A stretch of 58,122 bases of DNA, the filler included, from Jimgerdemannia flammicorona (taxonomy: Eukaryota): the NCBI GenBank assembly GCA_003990765.1. It is 3 parts of 3 records of this genome, joined end to end, with 100 filler letters (N's around TTAATTAATTAA, not from the genome) between each part and the next. Parts side by side here need not be neighbours in the genome. Positions count along the whole stretch, not along the records: positions 38,817 to 58,122 come from RBNJ01001974.1; 2 more parts are not named here. One strand, 5' to 3'. The number at the start of each line of letters is the position of its first letter. Position 1 is the stretch's first letter. The notes beneath the pieces are model-generated. The model worked only from the letters and a program-made list of their open reading frames with translations, ran no database searches and was not told the DNA's origin. Of the stretch, positions 7,171 through 55,775 are shown one piece after another. The translations under genes and the position numbers were made by a program.

Positions 7171-7224
7171 AGCAATAGAATTATCTCACTAAAATCATAA
7201 ATTAGTCATATACCTAGTACTCTG

Positions 7225-12830: not shown

Positions 12831-12889
12831 AAGTTTGTATAACCCAAATGTTATCAGAGAAAAACATATACCATAGTTTGTTGTTTTAC

Positions 12890-14900: not shown

Positions 14901-14949
14901 AAAAAAAGTCCATGTGAAGGAAAATTTCTTCTACTTTTAAACTTCTCTT

Positions 14950-16520: not shown

Positions 16521-16524
16521 TACT

Positions 16525-19309: not shown

Positions 19310-19409
19310 NNNNNNNNNNNNNNNNNNNNNNNNNNNNNNNNNNNNNNNNNNNNTTAATTAATTAANNNNNNNNNNNNNNNNNNNNNNNNNNNNNNNNNNN
19401 NNNNNNNNN
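19310..19409. other. Assembly spacer (44 N + TTAATTAATTAA + 44 N)
   Basis: 100-bp construct with stops in all six frames, identical to 38717-38816. Confidence 0.97.
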
Positions 19410-22715: not shown

Positions 22716-22719
22716 TTAC

Positions 22720-25700: not shown

Positions 25701-27023
25701 TATCTCCCTGGCAGGCTGAGTATTGATTCTGAATATCTACTGGTTCCCTAAGCTGTGGTATATTGCCTATTACTTGGACTTTCCAGCTTGGATGGTGAAG
25801 AGACTAATGAGGCTGGCTAGGGATTAAATTTGGGCTAAGAGGTGGTCCCAGATCAGTTGGGATACCCTTTCAATACCAGTAGTTCAAGGAGGGCTAGGAC
25901 TGGTGGATTTTCCTAAGAGGCTGCACTGCCTGAGAGCTTGGTGGTTGAAGCAGGCTGTAGAACTGAGGGGAGGGGGATGGGTGCTGCTGATGCAGAAGGT
26001 GTGAGAGATGAGATTCTCTCTAAGAGGGTCCTGGGAGGATTTGCTATCCCTGGTAGGCCTGGGTGGAAGCTATTGGCTACAGTATAAAGGCTTCTAGTGG
26101 GGGGGGTAGCAGATAGAGCACATCACATAGGCTTGTACTGGTATAGTAATAAAGGAGAGATGCTGTGGAGACCAGTTATGTAGAGATGGGACAGACTGCT
26201 TTTAGGGGGCACTCTACTTATTGAGTTTAATATTAGTGATAGAGTAGAGTATCAGTGGAGACTTGGTCAGAATCTTTGACCTAATAGTTGGCAAGTAGTG
26301 GAGATTGACAAGGAGTGGGATTGGGCAGGAGTCTGGGCATGGAGTGCTGAGGTGCAAAGATGGCTTTCTCCCAAGTACTGGATAGTATGGTGGAGGATGC
26401 TAAGGAGAAATGTCATATTGAATTTCCATGCTAGGCATCTGGTGGATGGTGGCCTACTAGAATGTGAAGAGTGCTACAATGTAGAACAAGTTGGGAGATT
26501 TGTGCAGATACCAGAACATTGGCTGTGAGAGTATGAGGTTCTGGGGGACTTTTGGATAGTGGTAGGGGACTAGCTGGGTGTGAAGAGGTGACCAGATGGA
26601 GAGAGAGATTGCTGGGAAGATTTGAGAACTAGGTTGGTATGAGGGGTGAGCAATGAATGGCTCACTGTAGGGTGGGATTTAGCTGTATGGGTAGGGCTGA
26701 CTAGATATTGGCTCTTTGTTTTTGAGAAGGGGCAATAGCTGAGTTTGCAGGAGAGGTTGTTAAGATGGGAGGGATTGATGGAAGATATACTGACAGAGTG
26801 GTAAGTTGGATGGGATCTCCAGGGTGGGCATTGCTATTGTCTGGTGAAAGAGATTTGTAAACAGAGTGGCAGGCAGGTGGAGGTAATTAATAATCTAGTG
26901 ATCTTTAATCAAGAGAGTGTGGGGGGGCCTCTAGGGAGATTGGATAGGGGTGGGCTCAGTGTATTATATATGGAATAGACAGATGTATTAATAAAGAAAG
27001 GAGTCCAAGAGACTATAAAAAAA
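22720..27023 (+). mobile_element. L1/Tx1-like LINE (ORF1 tail, full ORF2 pseudogene, 3' end)
   Basis: APE motifs DDFN, RID, WSDY. RT motifs QQGFIEGR, LDQKKAYDHV, RGVPQGDPLSP, AFADD, YLGI and GGLGL. C-terminal CEEC...EH. AATAAA at ~26990 and a short A tail at ~27016. Confidence 0.93.
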
Positions 27024-29938: not shown

Positions 29939-30731
29939 TGTAATAGAGCAAACAGATGGGACACAATGAACGACGAGCGATCACGTGACCCAGCGATGAT
30001 GTCATCATATGATCAAGCATGGCATATAAATAATGATACAAATGAATAATGCTGAAAATGATATTTAACTTATCCCTGACAACTGGTGCTGCAGCAACAG
30101 TTACCACAGCTGCTGATCATTGCCTAGTAATTGAGGTCCTGATCATAAATATATTCTTTACCAAAAACCACCTGACAAAGGTCGCGATCACAAACCTCAT
30201 TATAGTTACCAAATTAGTCACTCATACTTAGTCAGAAATTACAGACCAACTTGTATAAATACCTCCCAGTTTCTATCCGAAATAAAGCAGTTTTAGTTCA
30301 GTCCTTGATACAAGAATCAAGTCCCCCCCACACACACACATTCCCCTGAGTCTTAGTAATGACACCTAAGTGACTCTAGTGTTTCTGACTAAACTCCAGA
30401 AGTCTAGCTAACTTCTGCCAGAACTGAGACCGATATATAAATCACAAAGACTTAAGTAAACCCATTGAACCTGAATTCCAAGACGAATTCAGTCTGTGCA
30501 CAGCAAAGAACAAGACCCTCAAAATAGGGCACAAGAGAAAGATCTTTGAAAGATAAGATACATAAGAGAAAGACCTTTGAAAGATAAGGCACTGCCACTA
30601 CAACTACTTAAAGTGAGCACTTCCTCAACTGAAGGCTTCTTGGTACACATTGTGTACTAAGTCCCTAAGTAATAGTCCACTTCCCTAATTATTCAAAGGA
30701 TAAGAGAGGGGTAGAAGTGAGAGTTATTACA
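29939..30731 (+). repeat. 5' LTR (793 bp)
   Basis: TGTAAT...ATTACA termini; TATA at ~30253 and AATAAA at ~30281; matches 38293-39302. Confidence 0.97.
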
Positions 30732-30734
30732 ACT

Positions 30735-30748
30735 TGGTAGCAGCGGAT
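30735..30748 (+). promoter_or_regulatory. Primer binding site, initiator tRNA-Met-like
   Basis: TGGTAGCAGCGGAT after a 3-nt spacer downstream of the LTR; close to the complement of eukaryotic tRNAiMet 3' ends. Confidence 0.85.
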
Positions 30749-30829
30749 TACCAGCCAAGAAGGCACCAAAGAACACACTCCTGAAGTTGGAACAAGACCA
30801 ACCTTGGACAGGAGTAACCCCCAGAAACA

Positions 30830-33800
30830 ACTGTGAATCCTCAAACTAGAGCCAGAGAAGCCCTTGCCATTAGGACCAGGTGGTACCAGGAAACCACAGA
30901 TACAGAGACCCACCAGCTTATAATTGACCAGGCTTACAAGGATCTATACTAGGTCTTTAGGACATACCACCCAGGACTTAGGAATATTGTCAGCTGCCAT
31001 AGGTTCTACGAACTCCTCCGAGGATACATTGGAACCACTAGGACCCCAGAGTCTACTGCTATAGCCACCCAGGATTTTTTAGATTATATCTCACCCCCTG
31101 CTGCAAAAGAAGCAGCTGCCGAGTAGATTACCTCTGACAGATATCATCATACCCCAACCAAGACCTCCCTCTACTATAGACTAGTTGTATACTATGCCTC
31201 TGCCATAACTAGGTATGAGAACGAGTAAGCAGGCCACCCATCCCCTACTGCTGAACAAGGAGCAGGTCCATCTACCCAGCCAGAGACTGATATCCTCTTT
31301 GAAGGACCTAGTCAGTATGAGGACGTGCTATCTCATCAGGGAAGGGAGTCAGATGAAGACTCTACAGGTTACCAGTCTGACAATAGCCAACAAGGAACAG
31401 TAGGCCTAGGAATTTACCAAGGAACCACAGGTCAAGAAGATCAGACCCCAGAACCAACCCAGCCACCTATACAGAGATTTGGTTTACCCTCTCTCACAGG
31501 ACTCTTTGACTTAATATCCAGAAATCAAGTAACCCCAAGTCATACAGCACCACAACCCCACTAAGCAGAACAATCTTCAGGAGAATCTACCCCAACAGGC
31601 CCACCACCACTAGTCAATATAATGGTAGATGTCAATATTGCAGCACTAACTACCCAGCTAGCAGCACTAGCAGGGATAGTAGGAGAAATTGCTGAACAGA
31701 ACAAATCAACCAAGACCTTGTGAATCCCAACATTCAGTGGAAAAAACAGCGACATTAAAAACTTCATCAATGCAGTTGACATAGGCTACCGAGCAAACCA
31801 ATGGAATGACAACTGAGTACCTATAGGAATGCTTGCCAATAACCAGAACAGTACCCTCCAACAACTGTTTGCCACATCAGCAGCACAAGTAGAAACAGTA
31901 GCCACATTCTTCACTAGAACAGCAGCCAAATTCTGGCGAACCTTGGAACAACACCCAGTAACCTGAGAAGCCCACCCTCAAGTCAATGGACAAGTATCTG
32001 GCATCAATAGACCAGGTTGGGATGACTACGAAGCAGGCCCAGAACTCAAGGCCTTGCTACTGACCAAATTCCGAAATGTGGCCTACATATAAGAAACTTG
32101 GAACAAACTGTCCCACAAGAATGGCGAAGAAGATCTAGAGACCTTTGCCACCAGAATAGATGCCTATCTCAAAACTGTTGGACTTACTTACCAGGAGAAC
32201 AATTTGGCCATCAATGGTACCAGAGCCAACCATCTCTTTGCAGCCCTACCAGACTGGCTCACCCAGAAGATCAAGGAACAAGGTCTTCCCCAAGGATGTC
32301 CCCACTACTCATGGTGCTTTGCTCAAGTACAAAGAAGAGCCCGCAAAATCCTTGCTGCATAAGCTCCATGAAATCAAGAACACAAGAAGGATAGCCAAGA
32401 CAGGAGAAATTCCACCAGAAGAAATGATCAAAGGAATGATCAAAGATATGTATGATCAAAGGTATGATCAAAGGAACCAGTGAAATCCCAGAGGACCCAG
32501 ACCTCCCACTGAGGATGAGAAGAAGCAGCTCCATGAAAAAGGATTGTGCTTCATCTGCAAGAAGGCAGGACACATCTCAGTCAAATGTTCTGAGAAGAGA
32601 AACAGATCAGGTGAACCCAGTAACCAGAACATTACTGTCATCGGAGAAGGTCCAGGAAAGAAGAACCCTGAGAATGTCATCAAAGTACAGAAGATATGGT
32701 ACAAGGCTACTATCCCCACTAAGGCCCACCCAACTGATGCTGGTTATGACCTCTACAGCAGTCAAGACCTCACTATTCCACCAAGTACCAATGCTACAGT
32801 GTGAACAGGAATTGCAATGCAAGCTCCCAGAGGCACATACATCCGCCTTGCCAAGCGAAGCAGCCTAGCCAAAGAGTTCAACATTGGGCTAGAAGGAGGA
32901 GTAGTTGACCAAGGGTTTACTGGAGAAATCCATATCATCTTGCGAAATTTTGGAGACACATCATTTGAAGTCAAAACAGGCCAAAGGATTGCCCAAGCAA
33001 TCATTGAAGAAATCTATCAAGATCTCACCATTGAAGAAGTCCCCAAACTCTCCCAGACAGACTGCAGCAAGAAAGGGTTTGGATCAACCAACAAACCTCC
33101 CAGTCAGAAGGTCACTACTATGGAGGAAGATGATGAAAACTGGTACAAGAGAATTGCAGATGGTTATGCACCATGTGGACGATGCCCTCATTCTATTCGA
33201 ATGTACTGCATGGAATATATTAGTGAATGCCATACATGCCTCTTCAAGGTTTTCAAAATCAACTCTGAAAGAAACCAAGCTCCACAGACTGAGGAACCCA
33301 AACAAGACAACCCTCCTTGTGAAGAATGGGGAGAAACTGACTTCGAGGAGACTGACAGCAATTGGGACAACAATGAGAATGATGAGCTCAACACCATCAA
33401 GAAGGAGGACAGTTGCATCAAGTTCACAGGCCAAATCCACAGACAGAATATCAATGTCTTGCTTGATAGTGGTGATACTGGAAGCTACATCAGCACTAAG
33501 ACCACCAAGAGGATTGGAGCCCAAAGCAGACCAACTACTGAGAAAAGAAGTATTACCTTTGGTGATGGAAAGACTGCGCCATTGACTAAGATCTGTGAAG
33601 ATCTATTGCTCAAGATTGGCAAATATCAAGAGAAGTTGGACTTCAGCATTGTAGATCTTCCAGGACAGGACATCATCCTAGGAAAAGCCTGGTTGACCCA
33701 GCACAACCCAGATATCAACTGGAGGACCAATGAGGTTAACCTGACCCACGAAGGCAGAAAGATCACCCTGACACCCCAGGAAGATACCAACCACCAGGGA

Positions 33801-36800
33801 ATTGAAATCATCTCTGCCATTCAAATGAAGAGACTCTCTCAAAAAAAGGGAAACACCTACTTCATCTGTACAGTACAAGAAGTCACTGAAGCTACAAGTA
33901 GCCCAATTCCAACAGAAGCTCAAGAACTGTTTGAAGAATTCCAAGATGTATTCTAAGACCCCCAAGGACTTCCACCCAAGTGCCAAATCCAACATGGAAT
34001 TGATCTTATTCCAGGATCTAAACCCCCATACAAGAGTATCTACCAACTGGCCCAACCTGAGCTCAAGACCCTCAAGGATGAATTGACCAAACTACTGGCC
34101 CAAGGATACATTGAACCCAGCCACTCTCCATTTGGAGCCCCCATTCTATTTGTCAAGAAGAAAGATGGCTCTCTGCGAATATGTATTGACTACAGAGCTC
34201 TCAACAAGATCACTATCAAGAACCAGTATGCCTTACCTAGGATTGATGAGTTGCTACACCAAATCTTCAAGGCCAAGACCTTTTCCCTACTGGATTTGCG
34301 AAATGGCTACCACCAGATTCTCATTGATGAGAAGGACATTGAAAAGACAGCTTTCTGAACATGGTTTGGATACTACCAGTTTCGAGTCATGCCTTTTGGA
34401 TTGACCAATGCACCAGCAACATTCCAGTATCTGATGAATGACATCTTTGGACCACTCCTCAACATCTGTGTCCTTGTGTATATCGATGATATACTAATCT
34501 ACAGTGAGACAGTAGAGTTACACTACACCCACCTCAGACAAGTACTGACCCTCCTGCGAGAACACCAGCTCTATGCCAAGATGAGCAAGTGTAAGTTCTA
34601 TCAAGACCAGATTGAGTACTTAGGACACATCATCTCTGCTGAAGGTATCAATGTGGACCCCCGAAAGGTATCAGCTCTCAAGGATATCCCTATCCCTACT
34701 ACCCTCAAGCTACTCCAGCACTTTCTGGGTATTGCCAGTTATTACCAAAGGTTTATCCAAGGATACTCTGCTATTGTAGCCCCACTGACCAGCCTGGCCC
34801 ACAAAGGAGTGAACATCAAAGCTGAATGGACCCCCGAATGCACCCTGGCTATAGACCATCTCAAGAGACTTCTTACTGAGGCCCCAGTGCTGATTGCACC
34901 TGACCCTACCAGACCATTCACCCTGACCACAGATGTCTCTGATATTGCTATTGGAGCAGTACTCAGCCAAGAAGACTGCCCAGTGGCCTACCTTTCCCAG
35001 AAGCTCAAGCTAGCTGAGACCCGATATACCACCCATGAGAAGGAACTCTTGGCTATTGTCACTGCACTCCAGGAATGGTGCCATTTCCTCCTAGGACAGC
35101 CATTTATGGCCTACACTGATCACCATACACTGTGGTATATTCACACACAGCCTATGCTGACCCACAGACAAGCCTGCTAGATGAAAATCATTGCCAATTT
35201 TGATATGGAAATCAAGTATATCTCAGGCAAAACCAACTGTGTGGCTGATGGTTTCTCCAGGTACATGGAAGATGAACTTGTCTTCATAGTCGAGGTAATT
35301 GGAGATCTCACCCAGATGATCAAGGAAGGCTACCAGCAAGACAGCCCCCTGACGAAATTCCTTCAATTCTGCCAAGACCCAGAGGCCGAGGTTCCAGAAC
35401 CCATGAGGCAAATGGCCAAGAGATTCACTTACCATAATGGACTTATCTACAGAGACCATAACAGAGTAGTTGTACCCAACAATGATACTCTGTGACTCAA
35501 GATCATGCAGGAACTCCATGATACTCCTGCAGCAGGACACTTTGGTTTTGAAAAGACCTACAACCTCCTCTCAAGAGAGTTCTATTGGCCAAAGATGACC
35601 AAGGATATCAAAGACTTTGTGGCCTCATGCGAGATGTGCCAAAGGTTCAAAAGTGGTAACAAGCTACCAGCAGGACTCCTGCAACCCTTGCCTATCCCGA
35701 GTCACAATTGAGATCAGATTGCAATAGACTTCATTGTCCAACTCCCCAAGACCAAGGCAGGATGGGATGCCATTGTGGTATTCGTGGACCACCTAAGTAA
35801 ACAAGCCCATTTTGCACCAACCAAGACCACCACTACAGCACCAGAGATTGCTGAGATCTTTCTCAACCAAGTATTCAGGCTATATGGCATGCCTAGCACT
35901 ATTGTATCTGACTGAGATACCAAGTTCACAAGCAACTTCTGGAAGGCATTTTTCTCCCTCCATGGAACCAAGCTGAAGTTCTCTACTGCCTACCACCCTC
36001 AGACTGATGGTCAAACTGAACAAACCAACAGGACTCTCAAACAGATGCTTAGCATCTTCTGCTGTTACAAACAAAATGATTGGGACAAGTACCTAGCCCA
36101 CACCAAGTTTGCCTACAATAATAGTCAGCAAACCTCTACAAAGAAGACCCCATTCTTCCTGAACCACAGTCAACACCCAAGGACCCCAAGTACCACTGCG
36201 AAATCAGCAGTCCCAGCAGCCCAAGATCTGGCCGAGACTATTTCTGACCTTACCCAAATGACAAGAGATACTCTCATAGAAGCACAAGACTATCAGACCA
36301 AGTATGTGAACTTGAAGCAAAGAGAAGCCTCCTATAATATTGGTGACATGGTCATTCTTAGAACAGACCACCTCCACCCAGATACCCTAGCACAACAACC
36401 AGCCAAGAAACTCCGTGCTAGAAGAATTGGACCATACAAGATCATGGAAAAAATCAGCGAAGTCAACTACAAGTTGCAACTTCTCCACAATATCCAAGTA
36501 CACTCAGTATTCCATATTAGCCAATTGGTGGACTACCATGAAAACCCATTCCCCAAGCATACAGTTCCACCACTACCCCCAATTAGGATCAATGATCATG
36601 AGGAATTCGAAATTGAGGAAGTACTTGACCACAAGGTCCACAAATATCCCAAAACAGTCAAGCGGTTTTTCCTGATCAAGTGGAAGGGTTACCCCACCCA
36701 TGATGCCACCTGGGAAAAAGAAGAAGCCCTGAAGAATGCACGCAAAGCCCTTCAGGACTACATGAAAACACTCACTCCCCAGCAAAGGAAGGAACTACAG

Positions 36801-36806
36801 CTCTAA
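30830..36806 (+). pseudogene. Gag-dUTPase-Pol polyprotein pseudogene
   Basis: N-terminal extension, Gag core from 31622 (IPTFSG), knuckle CFICKKAGHISVKC, dUTPase, PR LLDSG, RT YIDD, RH TTDVSD, IN HDTPAAGH..CEMC plus DDE core, GPY motif, chromodomain FLIKWKGY..DATWE. One frameshift at ~32450; the internal stops are consistent with C>T/G>A transitions. Confidence 0.95.
32679..33089 (+). pseudogene. dut: Trimeric dUTPase domain within the polyprotein
   Basis: Motifs AGYDL, RSSL, GVVDQGFTGEI, GQRIAQ and KGFGST; one probable CGA>TGA stop at 32802. Confidence 0.95.
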
Positions 36807-37377
36807 GTATTGGAGTGCATAGTGAGCAGAAGGATATTATATATTTTATCCAGAAATATATAATACTGAACATTGTGAAAAAAGGAACACTATGGATACC
36901 CAATAAGAAGATACCTGAGCAAAAGAACAATCTAGTACAGTATAGCAAAATGCATTTGAACAACTCCATTTCATACCATCTGTGTCATCTCTGCTGGATG
37001 ATGACGGATACTTCATATAGAACTTAGGAAAACCAACAATGTCGAAACCAGTCTAAGCCCATCCACATGACAGATATTGTTACTAGAAATTACCTCGGAT
37101 TATAAGAAAAGTCTATTTCTGAGAGGTTCAAACCCCCAGCTGCGACAATGGGAGCCCTCACCCTAGACAAGGATGGCCAGTCCTCGCAAATGTGCCAACC
37201 AGACAAAAAAAAAGTGGACCAAGACCTGTTAACTCTGTGTAACCACAACTACAAGTGACGAGAGCTTTGAAATCAGGATTTTCTCATGTGACCAGTATAT
37301 GCCCCGCTTACAGCAACAGGTCATACATTTTGCCAGAAAGCATGACCACAGGAAGGTCACATCAGATGGGTGAATAA

Positions 37378-37389
37378 GTATAAATACCC
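37378..37389 (+). promoter_or_regulatory. Putative internal TATA promoter for the accessory ORF
   Basis: GTATAAATACCC, identical to the LTR TATA context at ~38607, about 70 nt upstream of ATG 37451. Confidence 0.65.
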
Positions 37390-37450
37390 TAGGCAAGAAT
37401 ACCCTACAACTCTCATCCCCCTCTCCTCACAAAGAAAGGACAAGATAAGA

Positions 37451-38281
37451 ATGCCTGCCACCCACCGCCAAACTGCCCACCATAGCTAGCCCCCCCCTCT
37501 CAAGCCAGGTTGACCGCCTCTTTGGACACATCTAGGTTGCTATCCAAGGAAGGAACCACCACTCAGAGGCCCTTAACCTCTCTAGCCCAGACCTAGGACA
37601 GTATATCCTTGACCACTGTGAACTTATCGAAAGAACCTACCTTGCTACCAGCCACCTAGAAATCTGGCACAAATATGAAATCGGTCACCAGCTCCTCTAA
37701 TATACAAATGGCCTACCCACAGACCAGGTCTCTGACTGGACTCACCTAGACAGGCACGAGCAAAGACTTGCCAAGAAGGTCCATCAAATCATGCGCCATG
37801 CCCCCTTCGCGATCCCCAACCTCAACTACATACAACTAAAGGACTTCCAGAACCTCTCTTTCCCTGAGGTTGATGTCTAGAAGTCAAGGTCACCCAAGAA
37901 GCCAACTCCTGGATTGCCCTCAAGTCTACTGACATCGAGTCTCACTGGAGCCCCCTCCTGAATGACAACTCTGACCAATGGCTCCAAGGCCTCTCTGACC
38001 TCTTTGAAGGACCACCCATCCGAATGGATATCCCCAGGCATGAGGACCAAGAACCCTACTTGGATGGCCCCAACTGCATCCGATGGAGAACTCCTACACC
38101 AGCACCTATCTTAATGCAAGAACCATTTGCAGACCTCATTGACTTCTCTGTCCTGGACAGCGAGCCACCAGTAACCACCCCCCCTGCCCCTGAAGAAGAT
38201 GATAACAACCCTGAGAAGAATTCCCCACCTTTCTCTCCCCTGGTTCTCAATTTTTCAATCAATGAGGATGTTGATTTCTAA
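37451..38281 (+). pseudogene. Uncharacterised accessory protein (ORF3, ~276 codons)
   Basis: MPATH...DRLFGHI...WHKYEIGHQL...LAKKVHQIMRHAPFAIPNLNYIQLKDFQNLSF...FADLIDFS...PLVLNF. Two compensating frameshifts (C run at 37490; ~37877). Full-length homology to 46080-46907. Confidence 0.85.
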
Positions 38282-38292
38282 GGGGGGAAGAA
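38280..38292 (+). promoter_or_regulatory. Polypurine tract
   Basis: AAGGGGGGAAGAA directly before the TGTAAT of the 3' LTR. Confidence 0.92.
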
Positions 38293-39302
38293 TGTAATAG
38301 AGCGAACAGATGGGACGCAATGAACGATGAGCGATCACATGACCCGGTGATGATGTCATCATATGATCGAGTGCGGCATATGAATAATGATGCAAACAAA
38401 TGACGCGGAAAATGATATTTAGCTTATCCCTGACAACCGGCGCTGCAGCAACAGTTGCCACAGCTGCTGATCATTGCCTAGTAATTGAGGTCCTGATCAC
38501 AAAGATATTCTTTACCAAAAACCACCTGACAAAGGTTGTGATTACAAATCTCATTATAGTTACCAAATTAGTTACTCATACTTAGTCAGAAATCGCAGAC
38601 CAACTTGTATAAATACCCCCCAGTTTCCATCTGAAATAAAGCAGTTTTAGTTCAGTCCTTGATACAAGAATCAAGTCCCCCCCACACACACACATTTCCC
38701 TGAGTCTTAGTTTTTTNNNNNNNNNNNNNNNNNNNNNNNNNNNNNNNNNNNNNNNNNNNNTTAATTAATTAANNNNNNNNNNNNNNNNNNNNNNNNNNNN
38801 NNNNNNNNNNNNNNNNACCAACTTGTATAAATACCCCCTAGTTTCCATCCGAAATAAAGCAGTTTTAGTTCAGTCCTTGATACAAGAATCAAGTCCCCCC
38901 CACACACACACATTCCCCTGAGTCTTAGTAATGACATCTAAGTGACTCTAGTGTTTCTGACTAAACTCCAGAAGCCTAGCTAACTTCTGCCAGAACTGAG
39001 ACCGGTATATAAATCCCCAAAGACTTAAGTAAACCCATTGAACCTGAATACCAAGGCGAATTCAGTCTGTGCACAGCAAAGAACAAGACCCTTGAAATAG
39101 GGCACAAGAGAAAGACCTTTGAAACAGAAGGCAAACCAGAAAGACCTTTGAAAGATAAGGCACTGCCACTACAACTTCTTTAAGCGAGCGCTTCCTCAAC
39201 TGAAGGCTTCTTGGTACACATTGTGTACTAAGTCCCTAAGTAATAGTCCACTTCCCTAATTATCCTAAAGATAAGAGAGGGATAGAAGTGAGAGTTATTA
39301 CA
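38293..39302 (+). repeat. 3' LTR (split by the spacer, probably two different copies)
   Basis: Matches the 5' LTR; about 110 bp is repeated on both sides of the spacer, with substitutions. Confidence 0.9.
38717..38816. other. Assembly spacer (44 N + TTAATTAATTAA + 44 N)
   Basis: Same construct as 19310-19409. Confidence 0.97.
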
Positions 39303-39499
39303 GACTGGTACAATTAAGTCACCAAGTCTCTCTACTCATAGCAGATCCCACTTTTCCAGCATATCACCAATTGCTCCTACATCTGCACCCCCTTCCTTCT
39401 CACTTCACAGACTCCTCTATTGCTCCTTCAGAACCCCCAATATCTGTTACATACCATATACTATTTCCCCCTCAGCATCTAAGACCCCATCTCAATGAT
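39303..39499 (-). mobile_element. LINE ORF2 fragment
   Basis: Its reverse complement aligns to ~24470-24665. Confidence 0.8.
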
Positions 39500-40120
39500 G
39501 TCATCTGAGTTATCTAAGCTATCTGTGCCATCTGAGTAATATTCCCAGAAGCCTACCAATTCAGAAAGAATCCATGATATCTGAGTTATTCATTGTTCTC
39601 AGTGAGCCTGGAACAGAAGAATCCACTGCCAGTACAATTTCTAGTAAAAAGAATCTGTGTCATCTTCTATTTCCAAACTACTGATTTAGAAGAATTCATA
39701 CCAAATCAAATTATCCACCAAATTGTCAGAATGTCCTACATAAGGAATCTGCTGTGCTATATAGAGATTGTTGTACTATATAAAGAAATCACCCACTACT
39801 CAAGAAGAAGAACTACTAAATTGGCAGACTGTTATATATAGAGATCATCATGCTATATATGAAATTCTACCAATTCTCAGTTGACCTAAGAAGGAAAGAT
39901 ATACAAATCACTGCTACACCCAGAGAACCATCCTAAAAAGGAAATCTGACAAAATCAATTATTGTATCCAGAACTTGACTATTATACTACTAAACACCAA
40001 TAAGGATCTCAGAAATCTTGGAACATTTTATTACTTTTTGACAAAGTAACTAGGGGCTAAAGCTAAACTACATCAATCCTCAATCTTGTAATTTGCCTCC
40101 ATTGAGTCAGGTATATTACA
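39500..40120 (+). mobile_element. Partial LTR of family D
   Basis: Inverted homolog of ~440-980, ending ATTACA at 40120. Confidence 0.8.
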
Positions 40121-40229
40121 GTATAGATGGTATAACTATTACTGCCTAATTAGAAATTAAAAGTATTTCTAACACCCTTACTTACTGAACTATAAGATAG
40201 ATGATAGAGTGGGCTAGAGAGCAGATGAG

Positions 40230-42450: not shown

Positions 42451-42512
<62 letters not shown>
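41030..42512 (+). mobile_element. LINE 3' relic with 59-nt poly(A) tail
   Basis: Colinear with ~25590-27020 (YLGIF onward); AATAAA at 42428 and an A run at 42454-42512. Confidence 0.88.
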
Positions 42513-44155: not shown

Positions 44156-46079
44156 ACTCTCCCCTTCTTAGCTTTTGACATCCTTGTTGAGGTCTTATAA
44201 TTTGGTCTAGTGTTGTTATATCATTTGGATGATCAAAAGTCTAGTAATATCCATTTTTCTCAGAAAGTGGTATACTTGTAATATAGTTGCCTAATGTATT
44301 AGATTTATATATTAAAGGGTCATATATTTGATATGTATCATATACTGGAAGTGATTCTGATGTCATTCACTGCTAAAGAATTTTCTCTAAGAAATCTTCT
44401 TAAATATCTATACCTTATTTCTCACCAGTGGTATGGGGAGAATAGGCTGGCTTTCAGTTTTGTTATTTTTCTAGAGAGTTGGTATTCTTTTGTCTTATCT
44501 TGCTGAGTTCTTGATTTGTTCATAATAATTATAAGAGTACTTAATGTTTGGAAGGTGTAGTATATAGTATAGACTGACAGATATTAGAGTGTTCAGGTTT
44601 CAGTTGTTCAAAGAATCATATTCTTGAACTAGATTAGTAGTATTCTAGAGGTTGGTCTTGGGTTTCCATGTTGTATCATAGATTTAACCTTTTCATTTAA
44701 CAAGGTATTCTGGATGATTCTTGTGGCTATATTTGTTGAGGATTTGTTCAACTTTATATTCTCCTTGGTCATTAATAATAATAGGTACAGATGGGTTTGC
44801 ATTTTGGTTCAAGAATAGCCTATCATCATTTTTATTACATTACTTGAGATATTGGATATTGAAGACTGAGTGAATCTTAATGGTATCTGGTAGTATCAAT
44901 TTATAGGAAGTTAGAGAGACTTATATAATAACTTTGAATAGTCTAATGAATTTACTATTCAGCTTCATAAATAGTCTGTACTTAAGGTTATCAACTCAGT
45001 ATTCTTGGATATCTAGTAGAACTTTTTCTCTAATGTCAAAAGTTTCTTCTCAGCAGTACTGGTTAATATACTGTGACTGTTGTTCTTGAGCTCAGGATAA
45101 ATTCTCAATTGCAATCTAACTTAAATTATATATTTGGAGCACAAATTCTTCAATAGCTGGATTCATCAGTAGTTCTGATAAGTATCAGAGGGGTGTTTGG
45201 GTTTTGTTCTGTATTGGTAAAAAATGGGGTCATTCTAATAGAGGCTTACTTGCTGTTATTGTAGGTAAACTCAACTGTAGTAAAGTATTCATGCCAATTA
45301 TCTTGCCTATAGAAAACATAGTTCTTTAGCATTTATTCTAGAGTTTGGTTCATCATTTTAGTTTAACTGTCATTTTAAAGTAAAAAGCTATAGATAGCAA
45401 GTTTTGTTCCAAGATATACATATAGGGCTTTCTAAAAGTAGCTGGTGAATTTTGGGTCTTGATTACTAATAATGATCTTGAGAAGACCATGATAGTAGAA
45501 GATGTTGTTAAACAAGAGTGTAGCTCTGTCTAGTGCTGTTGCAGTAGTAATAGTTAGTACTAAATAGGCTTGTTTGCTGAGATAGTCTACAAAGATAACA
45601 ATTGCATCTTTTCCATTCTTAGTTCAGGGTAGTTGTATAATAAAGTCTATAGAGATTTATTCCTAATTGGCAGATAGTACAGAGATAGAGTGAAGTAGGT
45701 CAGGTTTTGCTAGGATTGAGGACTTATTGTATTGGTAGATATTACAGAAGGAAATATAGATCTTTAGCTAATCAGTCATATAAGGCCAATAGAAGTTTTG
45801 GAAAATAGCTTCATAGTATTTATCAAATTCTAAATATTGTAATGGTGACCCCAGAATGATGACATCAGTACAGAAGACAGCCTTTCCTTGTAAGCCACCA
45901 GATTGGAGCACAAGAAGATTATACGGCATATGAGATGAATAATAATAACCAACTGTGAGTCATTGTGATCACGGTACAAGCATCCTGAAGAATATAAAAG
46001 AAGGATCAAGGAACTGCAGTAGCAGCAACCAATAAGAACCACCAATCCCAAAATAGCTCAAAGACTTACTACAAATGAA

Positions 46080-46907
46080 ATACCTGCTGCCCACCAAACC
46101 TCAAGGTCAAGGAACCACCAAGGCACCTTGGTTGAAGAAAGGATGTTCTAAGACATCAGAAGAGCCATGGAGACCTGCTCAAGAAGGACTCCCAGTATCT
46201 ACCTGGGTACTGCAGACCCTTATCACTTCATTCTCTACCGCCGTGAAATGGAAACAAGGATCACTATTGCTACCGAATGCCTCCAAATGTGGCAGGAGTA
46301 TGAAATAGGAAACCTCCTCTGCCAGGAGTTCTCACAGGCCAGCACCCAAGAGCTACAAGATGCTACTCCCATGGACATACGTGAAACAAGGACAGCTAAG
46401 AAGATCCATTAGATCTTCAGACATGTACCATGGTCAATCCCCAACTTGGAGTATGTTAGAGTCTCAGATTTCAGAGACCTGTCATTCCACCATATCAATG
46501 CACTAGAAGCCAGGGTGGCTACAGAAGCCCAGTCCACTATCACCCTCAATAGTGAAGAAGTAGAAGACTTCTAGTACCCTATCCTCCAGGACAACCCAGA
46601 TCAATTCCTGCAAGGATTTATCTCAGTATTCCAAGGCCCAAGCATCTAGGTTAGACCTCTCCAAGACCCCACATTTATTCCCTATTTTGTGGAAGAAAAC
46701 CTCATAGACTGGAGAGCTCCAGATCTTATTCCCAATTTCCCCACCACAGCCGAACGTGATGACGTCATCGATGATGTCATCCTGTGCGACATACCCGAAG
46801 CATGTGAAGTATGTGAAATGCGTAACCTGCATGACGAATTCGCGGATCTCATCTCCTTCAGTGATGATGATGATAAAGCCCCCATGATCCTGAACTTTCT
46901 GCTCTAA
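46080..46907 (+). pseudogene. Uncharacterised accessory protein (ORF3, 275 codons) within the LTR
   Basis: Single frame with no frameshifts; start ATA (from ATG) and four transition-type stops. (M)PAAH...ERMF*DI...WQEYEIGNLL...TAKKIH*IFRHVPWSIPNLEYVRVSDFRDLSF...FADLISFS...PMILNF. Confidence 0.88.
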
Positions 46908-46917
46908 GTTCTTTGTT

Positions 46918-47041
46918 ACACTGGATAATGCCAACACTGGTATTCTCATATAACACTGGATAATGCCAGCACTGGTATTCTGAGGTGATGCAAAATTGTT
47001 CCAGCACCTGCATTTTGATGTGACACTGGATAATGCCAGCA
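46918..47041 (+). repeat. Triple direct repeat ACACTGGATAATGCCA(G/A)CA in U3
   Basis: Copies at 46918, 46954 and 47023, upstream of the main LTR TATA. Confidence 0.85.
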
Positions 47042-48489
47042 TCCTGAATCTGTACAACCATCAGTACTGACCCTGGAACTTAGTAGTTTTAGTTATTGGA
47101 GTTTATATTTAGCTTTATATCTTAGCAACCATTGAATTATATTTTGTATAAATATCCCTCTTATTTCCTCTGAAATAAAGTCAGTTCTTCTCAGTACAAT
47201 ACATTCAATTCCTTGCAAGCAATCTAAGAGATAACAAGACAGTTAAAGATAAGAAGTTTGAGGACTATAAGACTTTGGGAAGGCACTCCAATAAGAACTT
47301 GCTTATAACAAACTTGAGTTAGTCTAAGAGATATACCTTGAAGAGAATCTGGTGTATTTGAAGAACTCAGTGACCACTACATGACAATATCTAGCTATAG
47401 GGACATCATGACTTTAAATAGGATAGTCCTTCAGAGATCTCAATTGCTAAGAATATACAATCTGTCCTTATAGTAGATAGCATTGTTCTTCAGTTGATAT
47501 TGATGATACTGGGAGTGCTTGTCAATATTATCACTGCTCAGGATTTCTCAGAGTACTTGGACTTCATTATCATAAGTGTATGCTACAATAATTTATTCTA
47601 TGATAGAGTTGGTAACCAAGGTGAGGGTTTGAATAACCTCTTCAATTGGTGGTCTAGAAATTACATTAGTAAAGATATTCTCCTTGTCAGAATAATACTA
47701 GATTTCATAGTTAATGTAACAGTTCTAGTTTCTTTAGAAGTTCTAATTGACCTAAAGTAGCTTAAAGAGATACTTAAAGGTTCAAGTGTTCTTGAAGGAT
47801 TTCTGGGAGAAAATATTCTGAGCTTTATTTAGACAGAGAACAAGGATATTTATACATAATTTAAAAGAAGATCTGGAATGATCTTAGAAAGAAAGAAAAA
47901 TACCAAGAAATAGGTTCTCAGCAAAGCTGACTAATACTATTCTACAATGTTCCAAAAGGTTCTATGACTATCTAAGACAAGACACTTACATAGTACTAAG
48001 AAAGGACAAGAATGTTCTAGTGGTGTCTGGGTACTGAGAGAAGGTTTCTAAGTAAGTAGAAGGTGGCAGAACATAGTAGAATGTTCAAGAAATGACAAGA
48101 AAAGAATAACTAAAAGATGCAAAAATATACTAAAACTAAATATGACTGTGAAATTGTTACATCTTTCTCTCCTTAAGAACCAATATCCTCATTGAGTTCT
48201 TAGGTAATATAAGACTAGATATACTTAACCAAAATTTCTCAAACTTGTATTAGCATATTAGTGGAATTGGTCATCCTCATATAGGACAGAGGGCCTATTA
48301 CCAGACTAACCAACTGGGAGGGGTTCGAACCCAGCTAGTAGCTTCATTTCAGTGGACTTCTTGTTCATTAAATGTTCTGCTAGTTCCAGGGTCCCAAAGT
48401 AAACTTCCAATACATAAGACACTGGTCATTGCCATAGGTCATTGACAATCCAAGAAAGTCACTATAGGGGTTGAGTAATGTATTTTATC

Positions 48490-51400
48490 TTAAAGTCTTG
48501 AACTAGATCTTGAGAGTTCTTGAAGTTGACCAGTGGTTCTCAGGTAGTATCATATTCAGAGTAATCCATCCACTTGACTAGGTATTTAGGATAGCAGTAG
48601 CAGATTCATTTGTCAAGGATTTTCTCAGCTTCATACTCAATATAGTCTTTAATAATCACAGGGGCAGAAGGCTTAGGAATTTGACCAGAGTATGATGGTG
48701 ACTGGTTCCAGGCCTTAAGGTGTGACACATAAAAGGCTAGGTATACTCTCATGATTTCAGATAGCTTGAGACAGTAGGAGGATGTAGAGACTTGTTCAGT
48801 AATCTCAAAAGGTCCAATATACTTAGGTTGGAACTTATTCAAATAGTGGTTAACTTGAGATTATATCTTGAGGTTCTTGGTAGACAGTAGGACTTGATCT
48901 CCAACAGTATAAGTAATATCATTATATTTCTTATCAGCATATTCTGAAGATTTATAGTAGCAATCTTGAGTTTGTCCATTTTAACTGTAAGGTTCTTAGC
49001 AGTTAAGACTTATATTTGACTACTTTTCTTGAGAGAGAATAGACTTGCAGGGGTCTCAGGATCTTTACCATAGAGTAACTAGAAAGAGAAAGACCAGTAG
49101 ATGATTGGATGGCATTGTTGAATACAAACTCCATATAAATCAGGTAGTGGTCTCAATTATCTTGCTCATAAGAAATACAGTTTCTAAGCATTTGTTCTAG
49201 AGTTCTGTTCATGCACTCAGTTTGTCCATCAGTTTGTGGTTGAAAGGTGGTAAACATAGCTAATTGGATTCTCAGAGTCTTGAAGAGAGTTTTCCAGAAG
49301 TGACTGGTGAACCTGGGGTCACAATTACTGATAATTACTTGTAGTAGGGCATAGTGATGGAAGATAGACTTGAAGAAGATTCATGCAATCTCAGATACAG
49401 TAGCATTGGTAGTAGTTGGTTCAGCAACCATAGTCTTGGTCAGGCAGTCAACAAATATGATAATAGCATCAGCATCAGATTGAGTTCATGATAGTTGAGT
49501 TATAAAGTCCATGGTAACTTGCTTAAATTTCTTAGTGGAAATTGGCAGTGGTTGTAGCAAACTGGCTAGCGCTTGGTTGGTAGACTTGTTGTGCTGACAT
49601 AGATCACAGCTGGCAATATAGTTCTTGATTTCCTTGACCATGCTTGGCCAATAGTAGCAGCATTGAATGTTCTTGACAGTCTTCTCAATTTCCAGATGAC
49701 TGGCAAGAGGGGAGTCATAGTGTTCTTATAAAACCTTGTAGTATAGATTCATGTTTTCAGGTAGATAGACTTGATCTTGATGATAGATCAGGTTGTTCTT
49801 GACAGTATATATATCCTTGAGCTTGTTCAAGAAAACTCTAGTAGTAACTGTATCTTCTTTATAAGCTTGTATAATTTGGTCTAAGAATTCTGATACTAAT
49901 GATTGTAGTGAGGTCTGGGTATCTTGATAAGGTATCTGGTACTACAAGTATCTTGCCAGGCTTATAGATGATCATTGGGTTGAAGGTTTGAAGCTTGAGG
50001 CTACATATGGCTTATAGACATAACAGGGTAGATAGGGTGTTGATGTACTTGAGAGATTGTTGATCAGTAATGATATCAAACTTAACACCTTCTAGATAGT
50101 ATTGTCAGTAGTATAGTGCATGTATTATTGCCAGTAGTTCCTTCTCATGAGTGGCTAGCTTTTGTTCAGCTGGGGCTAACTTATAGGACTCAAAAGCAAT
50201 AGGATGATGTCCTTTGTCATTATCTTATAACAGGACTGCTCAAATGGCAAAATTCAACACATCAGTAGTGACCATGAGTTTTAGGCCTTGATCTGCATTA
50301 TACAGGCCTGGAGCATGGGTCAGGTGGTTCTTGAGCTCTTGAAAGACTTATTGACAGAAGAGGTCCCAGGTATAGGGTACATAGTAGTCTGAGTGCAGGG
50401 CCTTCCTCATGAGATTATCAGTGGCTCAGTAATACCAGAGAAGTTTCTGACAAAGCAGTGGTAGTAACTGGCTAGACCAAGGAAGGATCAGAGTTCTGTG
50501 AGGTTCAATGGAATGGGCTATTCTTCAATTGCTTCTATCTTGTTTGGGTCTACTTGAATTTCTTGTATAGAGACAATGTGGACAAGGTATTCAACTTGTT
50601 CTTTGAAGAATTCACACTTCTTGAGCTTGGCATAAAGCTTGTGTTTTCACAGGATCTCCAGGACTATTCAAATATATTTGAGATGTTTTTTTTTAGTTGC
50701 ACTAAAGATCAGGATGTCATCAAGATATACCAATAGGAAAATAAATAGTTGGTCCTTGAATATCTCATTCATAAGGGTCTGGAATGTAGCAGATGCATTG
50801 GTGAGACCAAATACTAAGACCAGAAATTTGTAGAGTCTAAAGGAAGTCATGAATGCAGTCTTGGAAATGTCTTCTGGCTTGATTTCGATCTGGTGGTATC
50901 CTGACATGAGGTCTAACTTAGTGAAGTACTTGGCATTCTTGAGAGTATCAAAGATTTGATTAATTAAGGGTAGCAGATAACAGTTCTTAACAGTGAGTTT
51001 ATTGAGTGCATGATAGTCTATATACATTTACAGGGTACCATTCTTCTTCTTGATGAATAAGACTGGTGAGCCATAAGGAGATTTGCTTGACTGGATGGCT
51101 CCTTGTGTAAGTAGTTCTTCTAGTTCCTTCTTAACTACTTCAATTTCAAGTGGCAACATACAGTATATTTTCTTGGGTGATATAGCTCCTGGGGTCAGTT
51201 TGATTTCGTGATCAACCTCTAGTGTAGCCAGTAGACCAGATAGTTTGTCTGGAAAGATATCCTGGAATTCTTCTAGCAGTAACTTGATGCTTTCATTGAC
51301 TGACAGTCTCTTGTCTTGTTTCTTGGGGCAGACCATTATAATAAAGGTATGTATTATCTTCTTAAGTGCTCTCTTGTACTGTATAGCTGACAGTGTTGCA

Positions 51401-53209
51401 ATCTGGGTCTTGCTCATGGTCTTGTCTGTCTTGTTAGTGATATTGGCTCTATCTTGAAGTAGGGTGACTTTATTCTTGCACCAATCAATATCTGGGTTGT
51501 GTTTCATAAGTCAGAGTTTTCCTAAGATCAGATTATGATCTCCTGGTGGTGCAACCTCAAAGTCTACTCATTCCCAATATTTCTGGATCTTGATGGGTAG
51601 TTTGGTGGCAATTGACTTGATGGGGTACAGAGTACTATCTGCAGTAACCATACTATTGTTCTTGGGTGCAGACTTGGTAAGAATCTTGAGGCTTTGATGA
51701 GATTCTGATTGATGAAGTTCTTTACAGCTCTACTGTCTATGAGTACTTAAACTTCTTTTCCTTTGACTAGGTCTTTGAAAATGAGCATAGCTTGAGCTCA
51801 ATTTTCACTAAGACTTGCTGCTTGATCAGTGCTGCCAAAATCTTTTTGATCTTGTTTAGTCTCAGAGAGTTCTTGGACTTCTGTAATCTTGAGTTGACTG
51901 GCTTTTTCTAGAATCATTTACATGACTCAGTCCCCTTCCTTGACTGTGTAGTCTTGATCATTCTGGTTGATAAGTAGAACTTGAACTTGTCCTTGAAAGT
52001 CTGAGTCAATGATACTAGTATCTATATCTAAATGATGTTTAATACTAAGTTCTGATCACAGTGCAATTCTGGTATAATGTCCTTCAGGGCATTAACTGTA
52101 ATTTCAGTAGGCATCAGAGTTCAGCTCTTAGCTATAATAGTGACTTGTTTAACTGAGTGTAGGTCAAGACCAATGGCTCCTTCTGTTTGATATTGCAGGA
52201 CCTATGCCTTCAGATGAAGCTTCTTGACCTTGAGCTTAGGTTGACTGATAGTGGAGTTGATAGATGTATCTTTGGACAACATAGTGACTGATCTTGAGGG
52301 TTCATTAGTCTTCTTAGAACATTTTGTTGCAATGTGTCCTATTTGGTGACAGAAGAAACAGCCTCTGGATTTCTTCAGATAGTACTTTTCTTCAGGGGTA
52401 AGCTGGTGTTCTTTTTGTTTATGGTGTCTAGGTCCATTGATGCTGGGCCAACTATCCTTGGTTAGTTCTTGTAGTAGTTCTTGAAGTGATTCTTCTTGTA
52501 GTATTCTGGTTTGAAGTGGTTACTAAAGGTAATGACATCAAATCTATTGGTAATTCTTATGGCTTCATTAAGATTTTTGGGCTCTTCTAGCTCAACCTTG
52601 ACTCATATGTTTCCCTTTAGGCCTCAGATATAGCAGTCTATCTTTTTATTCTTAGATATTACTGGTAGCTTGAGTAGGATTGATAAGAATTGTACATTAT
52701 AACTTTTCACAGACTTGAGTTGCTTGATGTTTGCTAGCTTGTCTCTGGCTAGTTTCATAATATTAGCAGGCTTAAACTATTTGTGAAGGGCTCTCTTGAA
52801 GGCTTTCCAGTCTCTGATTCATATATGAGTATATAGAGATAATTATGATATAATTGTACCACCAGATAGCTGTATTTTCTCAGAGAAGTATGGTGGCAAA
52901 TTGGACTTATATGTCTTCTTTCATTTTTGTGAGCTTAAACTATTGGTCCAACTGGAAGGTCCATGTATCTGTAGATAGCCCTCCTCAATGGCTGTCAAAG
53001 GTATCTGGATTGAGTGGCTTGAAAGTGACTGATGCTATAGCAGAATATGATATACTTGCAGTTCTTGTTTTCTGCTGTTCTAGTTGTGCTTGAAGTTCTT
53101 GGATTTGGTGGGCCATTGCATTGATCATGTCCTCTATGCCAAGTTGCTGTCCTCCTGCTGCTTCTGTAGCAAAGGGGTCTAGCTGGTAGGCTGATTCTTC
53201 ACAGCTCAT
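48490..53209 (-). pseudogene. Gag-dUTPase-Pol pseudogene of family G
   Basis: PDTFD, YGSPVLFIKKK, LDLMSGYHQI, VYLDDILI and YIGPFEI; many stops and some frameshifts. Confidence 0.93.
51828..52238 (-). pseudogene. dut: dUTPase domain, family G
   Basis: AIGLDLHS, RIAL*SEL (RIAPRSGL), IIDSDFQGQV, GD*V and KDFGST. Confidence 0.85.
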
Positions 53210-55775
53210 TTCAGGTTCATGTGACTATTTGTGTTGGTTTCTGAATTCATGTGATATTTCTTAATAAGGCAAGGTGTAATGACACCACTGCTACCAAGTG
53301 TAATGGTTCCAGTTTCTTTAAGAGGAAGCAGCTAAATCTGGAAGTTCTAGTTGGCTTAAAGTAGCTCAATGAGATACTTAAAGGTTCAAGTATTCTTGAA
53401 GGATTTCTAGGAGAAAATATTCTAAGGATATTTATACATGATCTGAAAGAAAGATCCAGAAGGATCTTGAAAAGAAAGAGAAATGTCAAGAAATAGGTTC
53501 TCAGCAAAGCTGACTAATACTATTCTACAATATTCCAAAAGGTTCCATGACTAGCTAAGATAAGAGACTTAGAACCAAGGAAAGACAAGTATGTTCTAGT
53601 AGTGTCTAGGTGCCAAGAGAAGGTTTCTAAGTAAGTAGAAGGTGGCAGAACATAGTAGAATGTTTAAGAAATAACAAGAAAAGACTAACTAAAAGATGCA
53701 AAAATATACTAAGACTAAATATGACTGTGAAATTGTTATAGTCAAAGTTGGTGAGGAATTTCATCCATCTGGCTTACTTTCAAGAAAGAGTAGCCTGGGT
53801 CTTAATGTTGACTAATGATTTGTAGTCTGTTAAAACAGTAAAGTGTGCTCCTTCAAGATATCATCACTATTTGATCAGAGTATCTACAATGGCTAACATT
53901 TCCTTCTCATGGATTGTGTAGTTGATTTCAGCATCATTGAACTGTAAGAATAATAGGCCACAGGGTGTCCTTCTTTTATAAGCACTGCTCTAAGAGCTAG
54001 ATCAGAGGCATCAGTAGTAACTTTATAAGATAGGACAGAGTTTGCTACTTGAAGTACTGGAGTGGTTATCATGGTATCTTTTAGTACTTAAAAGGCTGTA
54101 TCTTGTTCAGGTCTCTAATTTGTAAGATTTTGAAGTCTTTTGCTTACTTTATAGTCCAGGGCTTTTCTTCTTTCTTACTGTACTTGGTCATCTGAGTAAG
54201 GGTAGTAGTAATCTTAGTGAAGTTGGTAACAAATTGCCAGTAATAGTTTACTAATCCAAGAAACAACTAGAGGTCTTTCAACTTCTTGGATCTGGGCTAT
54301 TTCATGATTGCAGATATTTTGCTAGAGTCTACTTTGATTTTATTGAGAGTAACAATGTGTCCAAGGAATTGAATTTCCTTTAGGAGGAATTCATATTTAC
54401 TAAGTTTCACAAAGAGTTGGTTTTCTCAGAGTTTCAGTAGTACTAGTTCAAGATATTCAAGATATTTCTTCAGGGTTTTGCTGAAGACTAGGATTTCATC
54501 AATATAAATAATAACAAATTTAGGTATGAGTATAGAATTGTATTTATCAGTATCTGGAAGGTTGTAGGAGTATTAGTTAAGTTAAAGGGTATAACCAAGA
54601 ACTTAAAATGTCCATATTAAGTTCAGAAGACTGTCTTGTAGATGTCTTCTTCTTTTATGGCAATTTGCTAGTAACCATTTTACAGGAAAAGAGCTCATGA
54701 ATTGTAGATTAGTAAGCCTATCAAATATTTTATTGATTCAGGATAGTGGGTGGTCTGTTTATTGAGATCACAGTAATCAATACACATTCATAGGTCTCCT
54801 CCTTTCTTGACAACAAAGAGGACTAGTTTACCATATAGTAATATACTAGGTCTAATGAATCCTTATTCTAGAAGTTCATCAATTTCTCTTAGAGACATGT
54901 AGTTGATTGACTTGAAGATAGGCTTGGCATCTGGGATAGTCTTGATGGCATGGTCTACTGCTTATTTAGGTGTTAGGTCTTTTGGAAGTTTCTTTAAGAA
55001 TATATCTCAAAATTTCTAGAGTAAGGATCTGATATAGCTGTTAACTTTGGAAAAGTCTTCTTCAAGATTTTCAGATTCTCCTTTAGATGGTCAGATAGAG
55101 ATAGTGAAGAGGGGGTATTTCTTGGCCAATTTCTTGAGTTATAGCTTATTGATATAGATAATCTTTAGGTCAGAGTCACTAGAACTGAGTGGTCTTTTTT
55201 ACCTTGTAGTTTGAAATTATAGCATTCCTTCTTAATGATCAGAGAATAGTTTACCCAATCAATCATAGAGTTCTCTTATTTTAACCAAGGATGATTTCAT
55301 TATCAAAAATTGGTATAATCTGAAGTATAATATATACTTAGTAGTCACTAATTCAGAAGAGTAGGTTGCTGACTTCCTTGCTAATAACATGGGGGGTTCT
55401 ATTAGCTATAATAATTGCTTGAGTCTATTATACTGGAGAGGTCAGGACCTTGAGTCTGTTGGCTGTTTCTTTATTGATGAAGTTGCCTGAGATACTACTG
55501 TCTATCATAATCTTGACTAGTACTCTATTGACAAAAGCTTGGATTGTAAGCAGTTTGACTGATCCAATGGTAGTGATTTCAGTTATAGGAGCTTTTCTTC
55601 TATTGATTCTCCTTTGGACCAGTTCATTGATACAAGAGAAACAATTGTCAATTATTTGGAAAGAGTACATTCCATTATCATGAGAGCATCAGCTACTTAA
55701 TATATATCTATCTTTGATTTTTTTGTAGAATTGTTCTTTCTTATTTATGATTGGTTGGGCTGGAGCCTTGTTTAA

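Follow-up and report, generated by a model that had tools for sequence, protein, structure and literature searches.

When long terminal repeat (LTR) retroelements replicate, the U3 segment, which extends from the edge of the polypurine tract (PPT) to R, is copied to both ends of the element. The retroviral genes nef and bet overlap this segment. Mouse mammary tumour virus (MMTV) carries a superantigen open reading frame (ORF), sag, in the U3 of its LTR (PMC3026287). Additional ORFs of unknown function (aORFs, or ‘add. ORF’) are situated between pol and the 3′ LTR in fungal and plant chromoviruses (PMC2864245; PMC7264820), and the non-autonomous LTR retrotransposons Cassandra, Helenus and Ajax hold genes for 5S or other small RNAs within their LTRs (10.1101/2023.07.14.548913; PMC10886601). 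In Caenorhabditis elegans, CERV of Cer1 is an LTR-retrotransposon accessory protein that acts on the element’s own RNA (PMC10309623). Here we describe a 1549-bp insertion (positions 45838-47386, plus strand) in a 58,122-nucleotide stretch of DNA (the window) from the genome of Jimgerdemannia flammicorona (GenBank assembly GCA_003990765.1; three parts of three records, joined with filler). It is probably a solo LTR, produced by LTR–LTR recombination of a chromovirus-type Ty3/gypsy element, the U3 of which holds a complete accessory gene, ORF3.

The arrangement shares with MMTV sag, nef and bet the presence of a protein frame in U3, hence in both LTRs: ORF3 is located between the LTR start (45838) and the LTR TATA box and poly(A) signal (47147 and 47174). 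The known cases are from env-bearing vertebrate retroviruses, whereas the lineage considered here is probably of the chromovirus retrotransposon type and its sister element in the window, designated F, is without env; furthermore, this LTR holds the whole ORF plus a candidate promoter, whereas the retroviral genes overlap the LTR edge. No homology of ORF3 to Sag, Nef or Bet was found, the protein matching no Pfam family at E ≤ 1 and, in a profile search, no PDB chain at E ≤ 10. Cassandra and its kin resemble the ORF3-bearing LTR in that the LTR, and so every solo LTR, contains a gene together with its promoter, which for ORF3 is only a candidate, but these are plant RNA genes of the pol III type, whereas here we deal with a protein gene with a candidate pol II-type TATA box. 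The F element is exactly of the aORF type, with its ORF upstream of the PPT and outside the LTR, whereas in the lineage described here the homologous ORF3 comes after the PPT, within the LTR; none of six phrases such as ‘in the LTR’ or ‘within the LTR’ occurs in PMC7264820. CERV may serve as a functional precedent for a trans-acting accessory factor, a parallel that for ORF3 is speculative. Our literature search, the coverage of which is incomplete for subscription journals, so that it is no proof, identified protein genes inside the LTRs of retroviruses but not of any retrotransposon. The LTR-borne accessory gene is, as an architecture, well supported and unusual. A fungal label for the lineage would fit only via the literature on dUTPase-bearing chromoviruses (PMC2864245).

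The insertion unit and its signals

Contigs of four public runs (X1, X2, X7 and X11) were aligned to positions 45400-47800 of the window at a likeness of at least 85%. The contigs are mostly 110-400 nt long, and all figures for loose ends and pieces given below are among those listed (178 loose ends and 3001 pieces lie beyond). Contig depth is not usable as copy number; X11 is RNA only by guess, so contigs from it that match the LTR do not count here as a sign of expression.

The unit starts with the heptamer TGTAATG (45838-45844; TGTAATA in F) and terminates with CATGACA, the two forming an inverted repeat at 6 of 7 positions. The tetranucleotide ATAT directly abuts both ends (45834-45837 and 47387-47390), as a target site duplication (TSD) of 4 bp would, 4-6 bp being expected. 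One X2 contig follows the left flank to 45833 and continues with 25 nt that match 47387-47411 at 20 of 25 positions, all five differences being transitions. Judged from its sequence, this contig is a related (paralogous) host sequence without the insertion, in which the 4-mer is present once. Such an empty site fixes the inserted unit as 45838-47386 plus a 4-bp TSD and, by its existence, places the duplication beyond chance. No Pfam domain of gag or pol was found in ORFs inside 45838-47386, and the junction motifs expected on the PPT side and on the side of the primer binding site (PBS) had no match anywhere in the window. The copy thus lacks PBS, PPT and gag/pol domains and is a solo LTR, in full agreement with the original prediction of a TSD-bounded 1549-bp unit; it combines inverted terminal repeats and a TSD for which an empty site exists with PPT- and PBS-like flanks in other copies and with its own promoter and poly(A) signals.

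The motif TATAAA occurs exactly twice in the unit, at 45993 and 47147, and AATAAA once, at 47174. The former pair includes the predicted TATAAAAG (45993-46000), a candidate internal promoter 80 nt upstream of the ORF3 start position; the second TATAAA and the AATAAA, likewise anticipated, make up the LTR core promoter and poly(A) signal (47147-47179), which are present in F and in a second, partial copy of the LTR (copy B, see below). From their positions, R-U5 would occupy 47180-47386, a segment ending in CATGACA and 85% identical to copy B. Directly 3′ of the ORF3 stop lies an array of 3.7 copies of a 35-bp repeat (46914-47041; TRF score 123; repeat family D17). These are the ‘enhancer-like triple repeats’ of the original prediction, confirmed as repeats. 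Copy number in the array differs between family members, as joints and back-joints within it were found in X2 and X7. Two tandem 12-mers, GATGACGTCATC, with TGACGTCA palindromes (46758-46781), are located in the variable acidic part of ORF3, and other copies carry indels there (46739>46783 and 46769>46833, among the joints listed). No RNA family of Rfam was detected in 45400-47800.

ORF3 lies inside the LTR in other copies

The position of ORF3 relative to the LTR boundaries can be read from contigs of other copies. The sequence preceding 45838 is ...TTATTCAGGAGGAAGA in eight X1 contigs, one X2 contig and three X7 contigs among the loose ends listed, which gives a PPT-like ...CAGGAGGAAGA in 12 short contigs of three runs. 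At the other end, position 47386 is followed by CTTGGTGCCCATTGG... in three contigs of X1 and one of X2, again among the loose ends listed, so that CT-TGGTGCCCATTGG, PBS-like with its initial TGG, comes after 47386 in four short contigs of two runs. These flanks are what a PPT and a PBS look like, the putative tRNA-type PBS starting 2 nt past 47386. The F element offers a parallel at both junctions: GGGGGGAAGAA is directly followed by TGTAATAG at its 3′ LTR, and ACTTGGTAGCAGCGG marks the PBS side, where the 5′ LTR is succeeded by ...TTACA-ACT-TGGTAGCAGCGG. With a PPT before 45838 and a PBS after 47386 in other copies, everything between them is LTR, and ORF3, being upstream of the LTR TATA box and AATAAA, belongs to U3; the ORF3 start position is 242 nt downstream of the PPT junction.

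Bridging contigs connect the parts in the same order. Two of them (45845-46005 in X11 and 45951-46068 in X7) join the LTR start to the ORF3 leader, one (46044-46166, X11) spans the start codon and another (46856-47041, X2) covers the ORF3 stop and reaches the repeats. Among the six joints listed, not one connects ~45990 to ~46914 or skips ORF3. Thin contig cover at 46777-46857 coincides with the indel joints of the variable acidic region and is not read as a boundary. The contigs thereby indicate that the order LTR start, ORF3, repeats, TATA/AATAAA and LTR end is common to other copies, i.e., that ORF3 inside the LTR is a family-wide property. The competing possibility raised with the original prediction, namely that the true LTR consists only of the last ~450 bp and that a PPT is located upstream of ~46920, did not materialise: the 33 nt that precede 46914 are free of purine runs, and the junctions of other copies are elsewhere.

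The LTR family, including ORF3, was found mainly in soil-metagenome runs of several studies (X1-X12). In X1, 274 of the 2240 aligned contigs are at least 99% alike, and no run exceeds 0.19 of the sampled words.

ORF3 is a conserved protein-coding gene, defective in this copy

Comparison with F by tblastx aligned 46137-46646 with 37512-38020 of the window, with 35% identity over 126 aa and 48% over 48 aa. Against F ORF3, identity was 50.6% at first, 67.1% at second and 39.4% at third codon positions (170 codons, p = 5e-5); the pattern 2 > 1 > 3 is a signature of coding constraint and argues that ORF3 evolved as a protein-coding gene. Matches among metagenome proteins point in the same direction: six of six are stop-free ORFs with 56-86% identity (14-44% amino acid divergence), two of them full length (247 and 271 aa) and the other four partial. 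The first residue of the 271-aa protein (P0003) corresponds precisely to 46080. Only five proteins, F-type forms among them, came out of a profile search through 1.84 billion representatives, and no fused longer form of ORF3 was present in the protein search.

The N-terminus of P0003 is basic, with 10 K/R in the first 40 residues, and the ORF3 tail, where 21 of the last 70 residues are D/E, is acidic and bears the conserved motifs FADLISF and LNFLL; a helical middle part is predicted, with no membrane segment. In the ESM Atlas the best feature score was 0.83 with TM ≤ 0.33, which is noise level, and the AlphaFold2 model built from 11 sequences was poor (pLDDT 44.5). The Arg-rich N-terminus and the acidic, motif-bearing tail are the only hints at candidate roles, which, should the trans-acting cassette considered below exist, might be Rev/CERV-like handling of RNA or antagonism towards host silencing. 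Searches with the ORF3 alignment gave 330 pattern matches in metagenome contigs and 84 in viral contigs, none of which was confirmed. A locus (L001) hit by a 20-nt LTR pattern in metagenome contigs was dismissed as a chance match, having a GC content of 56% and no BLAST likeness to the LTR.

In the window itself, ORF3 (46080-46907, plus strand; 275 codons followed by a TAA stop at 46905; HMM score 392 bits over 46152-46904) is broken. The frame 46080-46904, which had been described as unbroken, starts with ATA and contains four in-frame stops: TAA at 46149 and TAG at 46410, 46572 and 46647. Its longest open stretches are 86 codons (46152-46409) and 85 codons (46650-46904). Nearly all aligned contigs, 29 from X1 included, have G at 46082, which restores ATG; position 46410 is C (CAG) in 27 of 27 X1 contigs and position 46573 is G (TGG) in 27 X1 contigs, while relatives have Q at the site of 46149 and Q or R at that of 46647. 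All five damaging changes are transitions toward A or T, a spectrum that fits the extreme CpG depletion and the dominance of transitions among contig differences. On this sequence evidence the ORF3 of this copy is a pseudogene with defects private to it. Since ORF3 is dead here, this solo LTR is not a working cassette; of the ‘complete gene cassette’ proposed originally, the LTR anatomy stands and the function in this particular copy does not.

Two other accounts of the broken frame were considered and rejected. An alternative genetic code with TAG as sense is at odds with one of the stops being TAA, with CAG or TGG in relatives at the TAG sites and with the stops of F pol being mostly TGA (6 of 8). 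A frameshift near 46140 was likewise discarded, since the frame of the family begins at 46080 and needs no shift.

The observed/expected CpG ratio is 0.00-0.28 in all 2-kb bins of the window but 18001-20000, where it is 0.43.

The sister element F and the partial copy B

Element F (29940-39303, plus strand) is a full-length chromovirus, with a 5′ LTR at 29940-30732, a PBS at 30736 and a 3′ LTR at 38284-39303 that includes a gap of Ns. It encodes a gag zinc knuckle, dUTPase, protease, reverse transcriptase (RT), RNase H, integrase, chromodomain and ORF3, and the Pfam domains in its pol (PF00078, PF17919, PF24626 and PF00385) identify it as a chromovirus. The dUTPase domain is placed upstream of the protease, and gag-pol has eight in-frame stops, six of them TGA. 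The LTRs are 92-94% identical; no matching TSD was found for F. Its ORF3 homologue, together with the PPT GGGGGGAAGAA (38273-38283), occupies 37452-38283 (plus strand), internal to the element, between pol and the PPT and outside the LTR. This ORF3 is also decayed: stops interrupt its frame, which in addition shifts once near 37877. It stops 8 nt short of the PPT/LTR, and upstream of the F 5′ LTR there is no repeat of ORF3. A TATAAA is located at 37379, 73 nt before the F ORF3 ATG at 37452, and the matching placement in the two lineages suggests an old internal promoter. The stretch from TATA to AATAAA (47147-47179) is the only LTR segment that is recognisable in F as well.

The Ns at 38718-38817 inside the F 3′ LTR produce an apparent duplication of 218 bp. 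An inverted fragment of an F-family LTR is located at 19410-19869 (minus strand), 94-99% complementary to 30055-30430 and 38409-39002.

The last ~350 bp of the ORF3-bearing LTR recur, strongly AT-enriched and with TATA/AATAAA retained, as copy B (3968-4316, minus strand). Neither ORF3 nor the LTR start was detected upstream of copy B: the similarity of that region to both is not significant, the ORF3 HMM reaching only E = 5.8. In the ORF3-bearing LTR the hexanucleotide TGTTAC comes directly after the ORF3 stop, where F has its PPT and TGTAAT. Both observations, neither statistically solid, would fit an older, short LTR that grew upstream to take in ORF3; either lineage could represent the ancestral state.

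A marginal match to the ORF3 profile at 5905-6108 (plus strand; E = 0.0077, profile positions 46-114) may point to a third, very decayed ORF3-bearing element. It sits in an AT-rich repeat that recurs at 6953-7191 and 17461-17699.

Proposed mechanism and alternative explanations

Because U3 is copied to both ends, each new insertion of such an element carries ORF3 twice and each solo LTR keeps one. We propose that in any of these LTRs ORF3 would be transcribed from its own TATA box (45993) and polyadenylated at the LTR AATAAA (47174), a self-contained unit of about 1.2 kb. AATAAA, about 20 nt past the LTR TATA box, would be situated just upstream of the genomic RNA start; the genomic RNA would then lack the signal at the 5′ end while including it at the 3′ end. 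Our best guess is that the ORF3 protein would serve the element in trans. As to the origin of this structure, the LTR boundary could have moved upstream of ORF3 and thereby created an autonomous unit, with its own promoter and the LTR poly(A) signal, in both LTRs and in every solo LTR; many independent cassettes for a trans-acting factor, outlasting the element itself, would build up in the genome. We consider this history conceivable and rather doubtful. The older short LTR would then have left its mark in copy B and in the TGTTAC that follows the ORF3 stop.

An LTR with a gene inside could be mimicked by an internal-deletion derivative, in which a 5′ LTR stub was fused to an internal ORF3 followed by a 3′ LTR of ~470 bp. 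Such a derivative is suggested by F, with its internal ORF3 that stops 8 nt short of the PPT/LTR, by the vague resemblance of TGTTAC... after the ORF3 stop to an LTR start, and by the restriction of copy B to the 3′ ~350-470 bp. However, the interval from ORF3 to the 3′ part contains no PPT, and the sequence 45838-45990 is not repeated in it. The account requires two precise deletions, no joint of ~45990 to ~46914 is among the six listed, and copies from other runs also have both junctions (45951-46068 in X7; 46856-47041 in X2), hence this is not a private deletion, and we find the explanation scarcely credible. Another way to reach the same structure is an aberrant partial cDNA of an element with a short family LTR and an internal ORF3, the purine tract before 45838 being an internal (central) PPT and the copy an integrated fragment that extends from it to the 3′ end. 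An internal PPT would give an identical conserved sequence before 45838, and contig depth is not usable as copy number. However, a short LTR again needs a PPT before ~46914, where none is found; the 45838 end has a terminal heptamer of the type seen at the 3′ end and in the F LTR, and the insertion has a regular 4-bp TSD. In addition, a 1897-nt X11 contig loses likeness at 45845 and is, upstream of it, unlike the PPT consensus, and thus represents a second copy with its left boundary here. The partial cDNA is consequently very unlikely.

ORF3 could, alternatively, be dead cargo in this lineage, the remnant of an internal gene engulfed as the LTR expanded and no longer serving as a protein, with the TATA box at 45993 present by chance. 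The state of this copy, broken in five places, accords with that, as do the lack of any run on record as RNA, the absence of a recognisable domain in ORF3 and the frequency of TATAAA in the window, about one per kb. But all six metagenome relatives are open despite their divergence, the defects of this copy are missing from nearly all aligned contigs, conservation by codon position is of the coding type, and F likewise has TATAAA at a similar place before its ORF3 ATG; we rate dead cargo as highly improbable. Several points weigh against our own interpretation of a solo LTR with a gene in U3. No full-length element of the lineage is among the sequences, and the PPT junction, ORF3 and the PBS junction do not occur together on any one molecule; given the loose ends and pieces beyond those listed, a minority LTR form without ORF3 may exist. 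Copy B, which has no more than the last ~350 bp (perhaps ~470 bp) in common with this LTR and shows no ORF3, may represent a relative whose LTR is short. Except in ORF3 and the TATA–AATAAA segment, likeness to the F LTR and to the F ORF3 leader is not significant (z ≤ 2.5), and the terminal TGTAAT common to the F LTR is a mere 6-nt motif. The ORF3 protein has no Pfam, PDB or Atlas relative and its structure model is poor, and transcription and translation of ORF3 are putative.

Surroundings in the window

Pfam matches among window ORFs of at least 70 aa are to retroelement domains only. The solo LTR is 350 bp from the edge of another Ty3/gypsy element (47737-53738, minus strand), which is delimited by LTR-like repeats (47737-48159 and 53341-53738; 88-91% identical) and retains remnants of RT (50671-51027), integrase zinc-binding (49489-49725) and SH3 (48609-48860) domains. 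Inverted repeats at 436-852 and 39569-40124, 74-88% complementary and 39 kb apart, bracket most of the transposable element cluster. Blocks of 20-24% GC are found at 2-7 kb. The long segments 11000-17000 and 20000-30000 show very strong strand asymmetry, the GC skew being about -0.4 to -0.5 and then +0.45 to +0.52, and contain many ORFs of 100-340 aa without a Pfam family. Repeats at 12893-13700 and 16523-17332 are 81-86% identical; an array at 10297-10858 consists of six diverged units of ~58-92 nt at a spacing of 83-138 nt, with the common core CACAAAATTTGCAGCCCTCTGCCAGCAG; and a poly(A) run of ~60 nt is located at 42454-42512.

Implications

For annotation, solo LTRs of this family would be called orphan genes, and the ‘hypothetical proteins’ of metagenomes that match ORF3 are probably such calls. 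The coexistence of F, with ORF3 outside the LTR, and of the lineage described here, with ORF3 inside, offers a natural comparison for studying movement of the LTR boundary (PPT and att site). LTRs are usually taken to be non-coding modules that supply promoter and terminator, and a solo LTR to be an inert scar or a regulatory element. With a conserved gene in U3, gene dosage would track the number of LTRs and not that of elements. LTR–LTR recombination would then remove the element but not the gene, and a helper or counter-defence protein could be supplied from thousands of loci.

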